DNA from: Chthoniobacteraceae bacterium
GTDB lineage: Bacteria; Verrucomicrobiota; Verrucomicrobiia; Chthoniobacterales; Chthoniobacteraceae
Reading direction: 5' to 3'
DNA: 17,489 nt
NCBI GenBank assembly: GCA_031409655.1
Contig: JANNXQ010000010.1
Coordinates: forward strand, 1-17,489
In this document: piece after piece, positions 3,186 to 13,413 of the stretch
Layout of the letters: each line of letters opens with the position of its first letter
How positions within the stretch are numbered: position 1 is the stretch's first letter
Translations under genes and position numbers: made by a program
The notes under the pieces: model-generated
Seen by the model: only the letters and a program-made list of their open reading frames with translations
The model's database searches: none
Told to the model about the DNA's origin: nothing

Positions 3186-3671
3186 ATGAAACAGCCCGCC
3201 AACACCCCAGCCGCCAAGGAAAAGCCGCCGACTTCAACCGCGAATCACCCGGCGGATTACGCGATCTACAAACCAAACAGCCGCGGCACGGGAGGCGTGA
3301 TCCGCTTTGAGATCAATCGCGCGAAAGGCGCCGTGTTTGTGGATGCGGCCCTGCAGTCCGGCGACAAGCAGTTCGACTGGGAGCAGAAGATCACCATGAA
3401 GTGGGGCCTCGCGGACCTCGGTGCCGCGCTGGCCACGCTGCAAGGCCGCGAGCCGCAGGCGAAGCTTTTCCATCAGACCGAGAAAGCGAACAGCGCTTTC
3501 GAACTCACCCAGCGGGACGACGCGCAACGCGCTCCTTACATGATGAGCATGTCCCGGCAGGACGAAGCCGCGAAGACCGTGCGCAAATTGGCCATCCCCG
3601 TGAGTCACGCCGAAGCCGCGATCCTCGAAGCCGCCCTCCGCACGGCAGTGGTGCGGCTGCTGGGGTGGTGA
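3186..3671 (+). CDS. Whirly-like putative single-stranded nucleic acid binding protein
   Basis: 161 aa with normal codon usage. Motifs YAIYK, QFDWEQK, LFHQ, IPVSHAE and C-terminal LLGW occur in the same order as the plant Whirly motifs I recall (YSIYK, QYDWxxK, FFHD, IPITxAE, LIGW). Confidence 0.7.
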   Translation: MKQPANTPAAKEKPPTSTANHPADYAIYKPNSRGTGGVIRFEINRAKGAVFVDAALQSGDKQFDWEQKITMKWGLADLGAALATLQGREPQAKLFHQTEKANSAFELTQRDDAQRAPYMMSMSRQDEAAKTVRKLAIPVSHAEAAILEAALRTAVVRLLGW

Positions 3672-9252: not shown

Positions 9253-9633
9253 ATGATCCGACGTCTCCTCCACACCCGCTACCGCGTCTCTGATCTGGAA
9301 AAGACCGCGTCCTTCTACCGCGACGTCCTCGGTCTCCAGGAGACGCGTCGGCACACCTCGCCGCGCGGGTCCGAGCTGGTCTTTTTTAAGGCGCCCGGCG
9401 GCGAGGAGGAGATCGAGATCTGCAAATTCGACGGCAGCGGCCCCGTGCAGGTGGGGCACGACATCACGCATCTGGCCTTTGAAGTGGACGACATCGAGAC
9501 CTTTGCCCAGCACTCCGCCGCCAAAGGCTACCCGCTCTCCGACGGCCCCACCGCCACGAGCAGCGGCAGCGTCATCGCATTCATCGATGCCCCGGAGGGT
9601 TACGAGATCGAGCTGATTCAGAAAGCGCGCTGA
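9253..9633 (+). CDS. VOC/glyoxalase I family protein (lactoylglutathione lyase-like)
   Basis: LLHTRYRVSDLEKTASFYRDVLGL, HLAFEVDD, FIDAPEGYEIELIQ. Confidence 0.9.
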   Translation: MIRRLLHTRYRVSDLEKTASFYRDVLGLQETRRHTSPRGSELVFFKAPGGEEEIEICKFDGSGPVQVGHDITHLAFEVDDIETFAQHSAAKGYPLSDGPTATSSGSVIAFIDAPEGYEIELIQKAR

Positions 9634-9655
9634 GAGCTCCGAGCTTTCCTCCCCC

Positions 9656-9937
9656 ATGGACTTTGACTGGCTCGACGCTCCTTTTGATCTGCGCAAGATC
9701 AGCCCCAAGGAGATCGAGGAATCCTTTGAGGATCCCTTCAGCCTGCGCCTGCTCCCCGAGGGGATCGAAGACGACACCGCCGCCCGCTATTTCAACCTCG
9801 GTAAATCCGTGGGCGAGCGCGCGATTTTCACGATCTTCTGGACGGATGGGAAACGCTACCGCGCCATCTTCGCCCGCGATATGACGCCCGAGGAAGTGAC
9901 TTTCTACGAGCGCAAGAACTCGGAAATGGGATTTTAG
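9656..9937 (+). CDS. BrnT-family toxin (type II toxin-antitoxin system)
   Basis: 93 aa; MDFDW, FEDP, RYFNLG, RAIFARDMTxxExxFY. It lies upstream of an RHH-type antitoxin. Confidence 0.8.
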   Translation: MDFDWLDAPFDLRKISPKEIEESFEDPFSLRLLPEGIEDDTAARYFNLGKSVGERAIFTIFWTDGKRYRAIFARDMTPEEVTFYERKNSEMGF

Positions 9938-9940
9938 CGA

Positions 9941-10037
9941 AAAGATCAACGACCAATGACAAAGGCCAACACGAGGAAGCTTCCAGTGAGCAATTGGGCA
10001 ACGGGCCGTGGTCATTGGTCATTGGTCATCGGTCATT
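9941..10037. repeat. Inverted pair of heptamer tandem arrays (unit GGTCATT / AATGACC)
   Basis: Left arm aaagatc aacgacc aatgaca aaggcca (9941-9968, degenerate). Right arm ggtcatt ggtcatt ggtcatc ggtcatt (10010-10037). Confidence 0.82.
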
Positions 10038-10050
10038 TCCCCTGCCACCC

Positions 10051-10314
10051 ATGAGAGTCATCACCACTTGGTCCGAAGTTCCGCATTTCGAAACGGAGGA
10101 AGACGAGGCCGCTTTCTGGGCGGAGACGCGGATCGATGCGCGGCTCATGAATTCCTCGCTGCTCAAGGCCGACACCCGGGAATCGACCACGATCACCCTG
10201 CGGTTTGATCCGCGGCTGCTGGCGCGGATCAAGCGGATCGCCCGCTCGCGCTACCTGAACTACCAGAGCATGATCAAACAGTGGCTGAGCGAGCGTCTGG
10301 AAAAAGAAATATGA
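10051..10314 (+). CDS. CopG/BrnA-type antitoxin
   Basis: VPHFETEEDEAAFW and TITLRFD...IKRIARSRYLNYQSMIKQWLSERL (ribbon-helix-helix). ATG 10051. Confidence 0.85.
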   Translation: MRVITTWSEVPHFETEEDEAAFWAETRIDARLMNSSLLKADTRESTTITLRFDPRLLARIKRIARSRYLNYQSMIKQWLSERLEKEI

Positions 10315-11168: not shown

Positions 11169-11219
11169 TTGGAAAACGGGCACGGAACGCCAGTTCTCTT
11201 TTTGCTTCACACTCTCGGG

Positions 11220-11337
11220 GAAATAGCAGCTCGACTGGCCCTGCCAGAACGGGTCCCCCCGGTCCGTCCCAGCGATCCCCTCCAGTCGAGCTGCTCCCCT
11301 GTTTGAAAGTGTTTTTCCCGTCCGCACTCGCGGACAA
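11220..11337 (-). ncRNA. Candidate sigma54-dependent small RNA, GGA-rich
   Basis: Lies downstream of a -24/-12 element. It has a 5' hairpin gtccgc-gagt-gcggac, eight GGA trinucleotides, and a perfect 14-bp stem (11225-11238 / 11282-11295) followed by attt. No convincing ORF. The boundaries are inferred. Confidence 0.45.
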
Positions 11338-11346
11338 TCACCGTCC

Positions 11347-11363
11347 TAGCAGCGCCAGTGCCA
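11347..11363 (-). promoter_or_regulatory. Putative sigma54 (-24/-12) promoter
   Basis: The minus strand reads TGGCACTGGCGCTGCTA: GG-N10-GC spacing, one mismatch to TGGCAC-N5-TTGCW. Confidence 0.6.
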
Positions 11364-11465
11364 CGCGTGGCACGGCGGGGAAAAAACTTCCGCTTTCAGA
11401 GGAGAAAAATCTTTCGGCACTGCGGAAATGGAAGGGCATCGTCCGGATGCACGGCTCGCCGCGTG

Positions 11466-11478
11466 GTCGATTTTCGAC
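11466..11478. promoter_or_regulatory. Possible enhancer (bEBP upstream activating sequence)
   Basis: Dyad gtcga-ttt-tcgac about 130-140 bp upstream of the inferred sigma54 start site, with A/T tracts in between. Confidence 0.3.
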
Positions 11479-11524
11479 ACGGAGAGCGATACGCCCGCAA
11501 AATCTCGTCACCGGGGCCGCCGCC

Positions 11525-11651
11525 CCTGGGAGCGCCGCCGTCTCGGGCGGTATCCCAAGCCCCGCGCGGCGCGCCATTCTTCGCCCGCTGGGATGAGAGC
11601 AGGCGCTGCGCGCTGGCTGACGATGCCGTCCGAGACGACGGCGCTCCCGGG
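11525..11651. repeat. GGAG-type REP doublet directly after the murQ-fusion stop codon
   Basis: cctgggagcgccgccgtctcgggcggtatc (11525-11554) and gatgccgtccgagacgacggcgctcccggg (11622-11651) are inverted arms matching at 26/30. Each arm contains its own hairpin. Confidence 0.82.
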
Positions 11652-11652
11652 A

Positions 11653-13413
11653 TCACTCCCCGCCGTCGAGGCACGCCCGCACCTTCCATCCCGCCTGTTC
11701 CAGCCGGAGCCGCGCTGCGTCGTAGGGAAGGTGCAGCGCCTCGGCCACGATCCGGGTGCCGCGGTCGCGCAGCTTTTCATTCGAGATGTCCAGATCGATC
11801 ATCACATTCCCGCGCACTTTCCCGAGCCGGATCATCGCGCAGGTCGAAAGGAGATTCAGCGCGACCTTCGTCGCCGTGCCGGCCTTCAGACGCGTCGAGC
11901 CGGTCACGATCTCCGGTCCCGCGGGCAGATCGATCTCCACGTCCCAAGGCCGTGCTGACGGTCGCCGCGCCGGATTGCACGTGAGCAGCACCGTCTGCGC
12001 GCCCAGCTCCCACGCCCGCTCCAGCGCTCCGAGGACGAAGGGCGTGCGCCCGCTCGCCGCGATCCCGCAGACCACATCGTCCGCGCGCACCCCGCGATCC
12101 AGCACCGCCAGCGCGCCCGCCGCTGGCTGATCCTCCGCACCTTCCACCGAGCGATGCAACGCCGTCGCGCCGCCCGCGATGATCCCCTGCACGAGTTCCG
12201 GCGGTGCCCCGAAAGTCGGCGGGATCTCGCTCGCGTCCAGCACCCCGAGCCGCCCACTCGTCCCCGCGCCGACATAGAAAAGCCGCCCGCCTGCCTGCAA
12301 TGCCGCGCTCACCAGATCGACCGCCGCCGCCAGCTGCGTCCGGCACGCGTCGAGCGCCGCCGCGACGGCGCTTTCCTCGCTGATGAAAAGCTCCACGAGT
12401 TCCGCCGTCGTCCGCTTTTCAAGATCCGCCGAACGCGGATTCCGCTGCTCCGTCGCTGCGACCACGAGATCCTCGCAACCCTCGATCTTTTCCATTTCCG
12501 ATTTTCCATCTGCCATCTCCCCGCGCATCGCCAGCCAGGCCGCACCCATCGCTCCCGATACCGTGCAGAGGCTCGCCACTGCACCCGGCAGCAACCGGCT
12601 CAGATGCATGGTGAAAAGGCTCACATACTCCGGGTGATGACCGAAAATCCCACCAAGCAGTTTCACCGGCGCCGCGGGAAATTCGAGCCGCTCCGCCACT
12701 GCCTGCGTGTACTCCGCCAACACCCGCGCCCCGGCATCGATCGTCGCGTGCATCTCGTGTTCGCCGACTTTCGCTCCGCGGAAAATGGCGGGGGCCAGCC
12801 GCGCCACCGACATCTTGTCCGCCTGCATCGCCCAGCCGACCAGATCGTCCAGCCGGTTGAGCGCGAGCGAGCGCAGGATCTCTTCCGTGAGCGGGGTGAT
12901 CTCCCGGCTGAGATCGTAGTGGGTGAGCACCAGCCGCAGCCCTTGCATCGCCAGATCGTAGCCGCCGCCGCGATCCCCGAGGAGTTGCCCCCAGCCGCCC
13001 GCCTTTTCGATATGCGCGCCCTTCCGCCCATGCACCGCCGCACCCGTGCCAGAGATCACCGCGATCCCATCCTCCGCGCCGAATGCCGCCGCCAGCCCCG
13101 AGTCCCGATCGCTCCCGATCGCGAGTCGGGCCTGCGGCCAGGCCTCCGCCGCGAGCCGCCGCAGCCGTGCGCGATCGTCCTCCGTGGCACACCCGGCGAG
13201 GAAGGCGCCGACCTGCGAGACGCCCTGCGGCAGCACCGAGAAAAGTCGCGCGAGCTGCGCGTCGTCGATCAGCCGCAGATTCGACGCGGGCAGCTGGCCG
13301 CGCTCGAGGATCGTCTCCCGCCCGTCCTCGACGGCGAGCAGCAACCAATCCGTCTTGGTGCCACCACCTTCGATTCCGAGGACGCGCTGGGGAATTTGCA
13401 TCACGGCATCCAT
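11653..13413 (-). CDS. murQ: Fusion of a BadF/BcrA-type amino-sugar kinase and N-acetylmuramic acid 6-phosphate etherase
   Basis: N-half GIEGGGTKT, ISGTG, GGWGQLLGDRGGG. C-half TEQRNP, GAGTSGRLGVLDASEIPPTF, EGAED, IAASGRTP, GPEIVTGSTRLKAGTATK, SNEKL. One uninterrupted ORF. Confidence 0.92.
   Translation of the reverse strand: MDAVMQIPQRVLGIEGGGTKTDWLLLAVEDGRETILERGQLPASNLRLIDDAQLARLFSVLPQGVSQVGAFLAGCATEDDRARLRRLAAEAWPQARLAIGSDRDSGLAAAFGAEDGIAVISGTGAAVHGRKGAHIEKAGGWGQLLGDRGGGYDLAMQGLRLVLTHYDLSREITPLTEEILRSLALNRLDDLVGWAMQADKMSVARLAPAIFRGAKVGEHEMHATIDAGARVLAEYTQAVAERLEFPAAPVKLLGGIFGHHPEYVSLFTMHLSRLLPGAVASLCTVSGAMGAAWLAMRGEMADGKSEMEKIEGCEDLVVAATEQRNPRSADLEKRTTAELVELFISEESAVAAALDACRTQLAAAVDLVSAALQAGGRLFYVGAGTSGRLGVLDASEIPPTFGAPPELVQGIIAGGATALHRSVEGAEDQPAAGALAVLDRGVRADDVVCGIAASGRTPFVLGALERAWELGAQTVLLTCNPARRPSARPWDVEIDLPAGPEIVTGSTRLKAGTATKVALNLLSTCAMIRLGKVRGNVMIDLDISNEKLRDRGTRIVAEALHLPYDAARLRLEQAGWKVRACLDGGE
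12488..12516. repeat. Intragenic heptamer array (minus-strand unit ATGGAAA/ATGGCAG) in the kinase-MurQ linker
   Basis: Plus strand ttttcca tttccga ttttcca tctgcca; encodes MADGKSEMEK. Confidence 0.65.

Follow-up and report, generated by a model that had tools for sequence, protein, structure and literature searches.

The window, a stretch of 17,489 nt, carries on its minus strand a conserved, structured RNA gene of 120 nt that is apparently undescribed. Comparative sequence evidence makes us nearly certain of this gene, and from its promoter it is highly probable that the RNA is nitrogen-regulated as a member of the Ntr regulon. As the best overall model, we propose a nitrogen-starvation sRNA that would pair with C-rich mRNA starts independently of Hfq, a reading to which we give slightly less than an even chance.

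On the minus strand, an 18-bp dyad (11480-11463) is followed by two T-tracts, read in the sequence at 11409-11405 and 11386-11381, a sigma54 box (11363-11347), and approximately 120 nt without a credible reading frame. The locus is flanked by a same-strand gene for a kinase-MurQ fusion and a convergent lipoprotein-like gene, both of which end here. An earlier note on this DNA had likewise let both neighboring genes end at this site, and the dyad, tracts, box, hairpin, GGA motifs, and stem that it named were all found on the minus strand where it had placed them. Based on folding, covariation, and homologs, the small RNA is predicted to cover approximately 120 nt at 11217-11337, with inferred ends. 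Its 5′ hairpin P1 (11320-11335) covaries and has been lost in some lineages. The hairpin is followed by a purine-rich linker (11296-11319), consisting of a G-run and then an A-run in 81 of 110 homologs, and by the 5′ arm of stem P2 (11282-11295), in which sequence and pairing are both conserved. In the predicted fold, P2 encloses an internal loop, whose 5′ side starts with AGGG (11274-11281) and whose 3′ side is AGGG (11239-11242), and between these two sides stem P3 with its apical loop (11243-11273), variable in sequence and near-constant in length. The apical loop itself, YY-G6-A (11253-11263), is the most conserved element, and the same module is found in a sister RNA family described below. 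The 3′ arm of P2 and a pyrimidine tail, U-rich in about half of the homologs, complete the RNA (11217-11238; all elements on the minus strand). In this copy, P2 is a perfect 14-bp stem (11295-11282 paired with 11238-11225) followed by ATTT, and at least five T were counted within the next 12 nt after the 3′ arm in 55 of 105 homologs; the P2 hairpin probably also ends transcription.

The RNA stretch folds with a z of −6.5, and none of 200 shuffles was equally stable. The 14-mer arm of P2 occurs only once in the genome, so the stem is not a repeat, let alone the high-copy repeat that the earlier note had raised as an objection to its own proposal. Perfect inverted repeats of 14 bp are common per se (275 in the genome), and the eight GGA motifs at 11323-11256 (minus strand), present as noted earlier, reach a P of only 0.053 against dinucleotide shuffles. 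What exceeds chance is that promoter, enhancer, and structure are all conserved. Separate from the RNA unit, a palindromic intergenic repeat (11525-11651), present in 42 copies in the genome, is inserted just after murQ.

Similarity of its proteins puts the host genome in Verrucomicrobiota, and its order is probably Chthoniobacterales. By BLAST, the RNA was found in 11 other genomes of 60. A first covariance model, built without the promoter, had matches in 33 of 61 genomes and recognized 44 of 44 metagenome loci and none of 80 decoys, the latter being unrelated loci returned by too loose a pattern scan of contigs. With a second covariance model, the RNA was recorded in 81 of 151 genomes of the host order and in 12 of its 16 families, a count that includes the weakest matches near an E of 0.01, which were checked in part. 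Some genomes hold two or three copies, which stand in tandem in one case (G288). Outside the host order, a phylum-wide search of 150 genomes gave no credible match at the low sensitivity of 24 candidates scored per genome; two matches there were rejected, as they lack a sigma54 box and their positions overlap a birA-like coding frame at its end.

The homologs share one architecture, composed of the 5′ hairpin, the purine linker, a P2 of 12-14 bp, the AGGG/AGGG internal loop, P3, and the apical YY-G6-A. The latter is present in 94 of 110 homologs and a run of at least five G in 109 of 110. Between P2 and the loop, the distance hardly varies (20-24 nt). Two homologs (L296 and L297, from genomes G308 and G266) keep P2, promoter, and enhancer and carry the G6 run in the 3′ internal loop, together with an apical loop of four G. 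In a plain, unfitted alignment, both sides change in 17 of 30 base pairs. After fitting, the 63-sequence alignment showed covariation in 26 of 30 pairs at 95% pairing, which was reached by none of 500 shuffles, while slid controls gave 30-50%. A fitted alignment of 44 further matches, four of them on the opposite strand, had changes on both sides in 28 of 30 pairs, and G-U changes in the homologs favor the minus strand. The search for stem and promoter in related genomes that the earlier note had suggested was thereby carried out, and it returned strong covariation with the promoter kept.

When compared with Rfam 15, the RNA reached no gathering score (best E of 0.12, for a plant microRNA hairpin), and none of six homolog loci was matched. 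Together with the conservation across relatives, this agrees with the undescribed, stand-alone sRNA of the earlier note. The 6S and SRP RNAs were rejected as identities, as both are located elsewhere in the host genome (G000), the 6S match just under the cut-off. A small peptide was rejected as well, because an ATG is limited to 38 of 76 homologs and the indels break the frame, and so was a 5′ leader or riboswitch: the genes downstream of the homologs differ in identity and direction and are mostly convergent. Moreover, RNA and promoter are cleanly absent between murQ and brnA in two genomes (G045 and G059), where the two genes abut. We therefore regard the RNA gene as self-contained and dispensable.

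The neighborhood also bears on two cis-acting readings. Antisense action towards the lipoprotein/toxin-antitoxin operon, as considered in the earlier note, is not supported: the lipoprotein gene lies downstream in only one of 76 loci and is private to this genome, and the brnT/brnA-like coding sequence never overlaps the RNA and the pair exists without it. Genes of the brnA/brnT type are nevertheless a frequent and old convergent neighbor (approximately 40 of 115 loci, in several families) and sometimes end 11-50 nt from the RNA 3′ end, which would suit a bidirectional terminator or antisense RNA serving the convergent gloA-brnT-brnA(-lipoprotein) operon. We consider such a cis element very improbable: the majority of loci have no brnA/brnT-like genes, the operon also occurs where the RNA is missing, a conserved promoter and enhancer belong to the RNA itself, and the conservation of the loop sequence exceeds the needs of a terminator. 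In the window, the trio of glyoxalase-like, BrnT-like, and CopG/BrnA-like genes occupies 9253-10314 on the plus strand. The BrnT-like protein occurs in 48 of 61 genomes at 51-96% identity, nearly always in single copy, a pattern that resembles a core gene more than part of a mobile toxin-antitoxin pair. On the minus strand, 11653-13413 encodes a fusion of a BadF/NagK-like kinase with N-acetylmuramate-6-phosphate etherase (MurQ), which is common in Verrucomicrobiota; among 76 loci, 41 have it upstream of the RNA, and murQ is a lineage-specific neighbor. Further away, at 3186-3671 (plus strand), a 161-aa protein matches the Pfam Whirly family (E of 2e-08), a single-stranded nucleic-acid-binding fold.

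A sigma54 box was found at the expected distance in 76 of 76 distinct first-round homologs, recovered with a model that did not include it. Among 40 later homologs, 34 had a strict box, four more a near-box, one was a tandem second copy, and one had none; these promoter counts exclude opposite-strand matches, five from the metagenome-locus set and four from the later set. In the window, the −24/−12 box reads TGGCAC-N5-CTGCTA (11347-11363, minus strand; compared with the sigma54 consensus as quoted in PMC4253122) and is kept in homologs, and it puts the predicted +1 at approximately 11337. The earlier note had predicted sigma54-driven transcription from a start near 11337 and under an upstream activator site, which the comparison supports, and rpoN is present in the host genome. 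A T-tract with a CTCTG box and then a second T-tract (11381-11409, minus strand) stand out by positional enrichment. The T-tract and CTCTG box (11397-11409) keep a fixed spacing of approximately 39 nt before the −24 box and recur in amtB promoters (L223-L226, L232); the region is probably a DNA-bending site, and an IHF-like protein of unusual specificity may bind there. Elsewhere in the host genome, a top-scoring sigma54 box without a predicted gene downstream (contig C197, position 4470, minus strand) may belong to a short uncalled gene or to another RNA.

The dyad as first spotted (11478-11466) proved to be the center of a conserved 18-bp site (11463-11480), usually located 104-118 nt before the −24 box, with the consensus GTGGC-N8-(G/A)CCAC that is common to amtB, glnA, and glnK promoters. 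Among 237 sigma54-like boxes in the host genome, a strong box was combined with a high enhancer score only at the RNA and at amtB-glnK. Of 30 amtB loci in relatives, 24 carry a sigma54 box, and 21 of those 24 exceed an enhancer score of 9, a level that 28 of 34 held-out RNA promoters also pass; the threshold was derived from 70-nt shuffle windows and is slightly lenient for these scans of 100-120 nt. An unbiased search of 151 genomes for the pattern of enhancer, gap, and sigma54 box gave 82 matches versus 6 in a reversed control. Thirty of the pattern loci were read: nine precede glutamine synthetase III, six Amt, three P-II (one called by Pfam, two from reading the start), three amino-acid permeases, and one an isochorismatase-fold protein, two are copies of this RNA, and six are other loci. 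In addition, a porin-like gene and a urea-transporter-like operon of the host genome (both named by eye) have a weaker enhancer site in front of them, and one RNA homolog is divergent from a glnK-like gene.

In other bacteria, glnA, glnB/glnK, and amtB are given as core NtrC targets (PMC12799797). A pattern that lands on glnA, amtB, P-II, and permease genes as well as on the RNA places the RNA, with high probability, in the nitrogen regulon. The RNA appears to share its control switch with the genes for ammonium uptake and glutamine synthesis and is therefore probably switched on when nitrogen is short. Judged by the promoters that carry it, the dyad is the predicted enhancer of this regulon, a point absent from the earlier note. 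Relative to the E. coli NtrC box as described in PMC8743547, the 18-bp site has a similar length and an A/T-rich center but other half-sites. Ten clear enhancer-binding proteins are encoded in the host genome, all of them candidate activators, and the gene neighborhood singled out none of the ten. The PEP-CTERM/PrsR enhancer, considered for a TTTACA-like word, was rejected, as the regulon consists of nitrogen genes and that motif is, according to PMC1569441, reported in Proteobacteria only.

The function suggested in the earlier note, titration of CsrA, had been drawn from the GGA motifs, and eight of them in this copy together with a csrA gene in the host genome would indeed fit a CsrA/RsmA-titrating RNA. 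However, only one of the eight is predicted to be unpaired, and the single ANGGA is paired. Across the family, the number of GGA motifs varies from two to nine, an accessible ANGGA is absent in 82 of 110 homologs, and two or more occur in only 5 of 110; the conserved single-stranded feature is the G-runs instead. Nor is the presence of the RNA tied to csrA: over 61 genomes, 11 have both, 27 only the RNA, 10 only csrA, and 13 neither, so that csrA was not matched in 27 of 38 RNA-bearing genomes, and 20 of these 27 are at least 90% complete. The one csrA of the host genome, whose presence the earlier note had asked about, adjoins fliW and flagellin, a protein-antagonist arrangement. According to PMC7652899, CsrA favors GGA in short hairpin loops, a preference that does not fit this RNA, and FliW can hold CsrA instead of an RNA. 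As a family function, CsrA titration is already largely refuted, and we give it next to no probability. The likeness to CsrB, RsmY, and RsmZ, as these are described in PMC7652899, amounts to the raw GGA count in this one copy, whereas their repeated short GGA-loop hairpins are missing here and the RNA is distributed independently of csrA.

The conserved single-stranded parts of the RNA are G-runs, namely the apical G6, the AGGG/AGGG internal loop, and the linker. Start-codon regions of the host genome are C-rich (54% C at −2), GGAG is depleted before starts, and there is no Shine-Dalgarno signal. In the two 30-nt windows around the start, 181 and 156 of 3584 predicted genes contain CCCCC, compared to 65-75 further upstream, while GGGGG falls to 34 and 12 genes from 66-70; the gene starts in these counts come from a simple in-house gene predictor. 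The C-richness of the starts may be a general low-structure bias. No match to Hfq was obtained in the host genome, which is 94.9% complete.

The G6 loop is also carried by a sister family of short RNAs, in which a small hairpin, GTTCY-G6-AAC, leads into a second one that covaries and resembles a terminator, with a T-run after it. A seed hairpin followed by a terminator is the usual layout of sRNAs, and the sister family shows it. Its two copies in the host genome (C4:11246-11305 and C96:3702-3760, plus strand) are the only intergenic ones with stem and T-run among 125 G6 sites. Eight matches were obtained in five of five genomes and none in the reversed control (loci of the family: L336, L344, and L431-L438); the family has no Rfam match and occurs also in three genomes that gave no match to the main RNA. 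Its promoters, read by eye, look sigma70-like or ECF-like and not sigma54-dependent. Finding one G6 loop in RNAs that are controlled differently points to a shared partner. A scan of viral contigs for the sister motif gave eight loci, two of which (L441 and L445) have hairpin and T-run by eye and may be due to chance.

In the proposed mechanism, an NtrC-type enhancer-binding protein would occupy the 18-bp site when nitrogen is short and activate the sigma54 polymerase at the RNA promoter, so that amtB-glnK, glnA, nitrogen-scavenging transporters, and the RNA would be co-induced. The RNA would then fold into its long hairpin and expose the G-runs of the apical loop, the internal loop, and the linker. 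Most likely, these would pair in trans, independently of Hfq, with C-rich regions around the starts of several mRNAs, and pairing would either block initiation or trigger mRNA decay. By analogy, this scheme would be the mirror image of C-rich sRNAs pairing with G-rich Shine-Dalgarno sites. Base-pairing is favored by the analogy with C-rich loops of the cuckoo and RoxS type, whose counterparts are G-rich sites (as described in PMC4615179 and PMC8216469), and the exposed conserved seed YY-G6-A, the C-rich starts, the missing match to Hfq, and the seed-plus-terminator layout of the sister family point in the same direction. Against it, the apical loop can fold back by CC-GG pairing, leaving four G exposed, and limited tests gave no conserved target: perfect loop complements near starts in five genomes had no gene in common, no conserved site was found in sucA (29 loci), in an ECF sigma factor, or in rex, and a single-genome duplex scan yielded no stand-out target. 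As the mechanism of the RNA, we consider base-pairing evenly balanced.

The sequence of P2 is conserved although paired, and the distance from P2 to the loop is near constant, features that fit recognition by a protein equally well or better. The RNA may accordingly be nitrogen-induced but titrate or scaffold an RNA-binding protein other than CsrA that recognizes the G-rich hexaloop and the internal loop, in which case that protein would also be the one titrated by sister RNAs expressed from other promoters, and small RRM proteins would be the obvious candidates. Several Rsm or Crc RNAs titrate one protein under different promoters in just this way. Besides the fixed geometry, the symmetric AGGG/AGGG loop, the loop module common to RNAs with different promoters, and the multiple copies in some genomes all speak for such a partner, as do the limited target searches, which returned no conserved mRNA; RRM genes occur in 61 of 61 genomes, and an RRM protein is described as a global sRNA binder in Bacteroides (PMC11697453). 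On the other hand, RRM genes are present also where the RNA is absent and thus discriminate nothing, the sense-strand loop motif is rarer near mRNA starts, where the site of a translational repressor would be expected, and each RNA offers a single apical loop, unlike multi-site sponges. Overall, we regard protein titration as possible, but rather unlikely.

The G-runs might also act on other RNAs. A sponge for C-rich small RNAs would match the several G-rich single-stranded regions in an Hfq-less organism, in line with the description of RosA and RsaI in PMC8216469. However, the intergenic loop complements followed up in the host genome turned out to be sister G-loop RNAs read from the opposite strand, and no C-rich sRNA family was among these sites, which makes a sponge quite improbable. 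Ribosome parking, in which GGAGG pairs with the 16S anti-Shine-Dalgarno during starvation, or a quadruplex formed by the G-runs would draw on the GGAGG of the internal loop in 75 of 110 homologs, on the avoidance of GGAGG by the mRNAs of this genome, and on the several G-tracts. Both are very doubtful, with GGAGG absent from 35 of 110 homologs, no such loop in the sister family, P3 setting the G-tracts apart by about one helical turn, and the 16S 3′ end not identified in the assembly. With regard to the sister family, a broader reading is that of a lineage-specific riboregulation code, mirrored relative to the familiar one, in which a set of Hfq-independent G6-loop sRNAs would throttle C-rich mRNAs or titrate one global G-loop-binding regulator; we offer it tentatively and as rather improbable. 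An equally tentative part of this reading is that the G6 module would be under at least three promoter types, i.e., sigma54/nitrogen, sigma70-like, and ECF-like, the latter two assigned by eye.

If the nitrogen-starvation sRNA with G-run loops is taken as the working model, the RNA is a conserved candidate with a clear predicted induction condition, and its enhancer is predicted for the nitrogen regulon of the whole order. The loop module and the C-rich starts together would give a handle on translation control in an abundant soil phylum without Hfq or Shine-Dalgarno signals. The full-text literature searched, which comprised few subscription papers and no supplements, contained neither the RNA family nor its G-loop module, the sister family, or the enhancer, and no description of a nitrogen-regulated sRNA in Verrucomicrobiota was found there.

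The functional class itself, i.e., nitrogen-regulated sRNAs, is already known from NrsZ, GlnZ, and NfeR1 (PMC4253122, PMC9731577, PMC10746234). Such RNAs are few, a review counting approximately 15 as involved and five as acting directly (PMC9170634). NrsZ of Pseudomonas aeruginosa is, as described in PMC4253122, likewise a stand-alone sRNA between tail-to-tail genes with an RpoN promoter, induced by NtrBC under nitrogen limitation and acting via a conserved hairpin-loop motif. It differs by its row of repeated hairpins with a ACAGGCAG loop and by its processing to short forms (PMC4253122), whereas the RNA here is one long hairpin with G-run loops from another phylum and a genome without a match to Hfq; no likeness in sequence or structure was detected between the two. 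GlnZ of enterobacteria is, according to PMC9731577, excised from glnA's 3′ UTR, requires Hfq, and represses sucA, while our RNA has its own promoter and sucA shows no conserved complementary site. The loops of our RNA also resemble RosA and RsaI of Firmicutes, whose G-rich single-stranded regions pair with C-rich RNA without an RNA hub protein; PMC8216469 describes these two as sponges of other sRNAs and as sigma-A driven or carbon-regulated.

GlmY and GlmZ are sigma54 sRNAs of amino-sugar control, and this class was rejected, as their partner RapZ was not matched in the 94.9% complete host genome. A further parallel is offered by NfeR1 and the cuckoo RNAs of alphaproteobacteria, in which variable stems present one conserved, homopolymer-like loop as a reused module (PMC10746234, PMC4615179), and NfeR1 is described as nitrogen-responsive and as pairing with a translation start (PMC10746234). 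Their loops are C-rich and directed against the Shine-Dalgarno sequence, and NtrC represses NfeR1 (PMC10746234, PMC4615179), whereas our RNA combines G-rich loops with a promoter of the activated sigma54 type, in a genome whose mRNA starts are C-rich.
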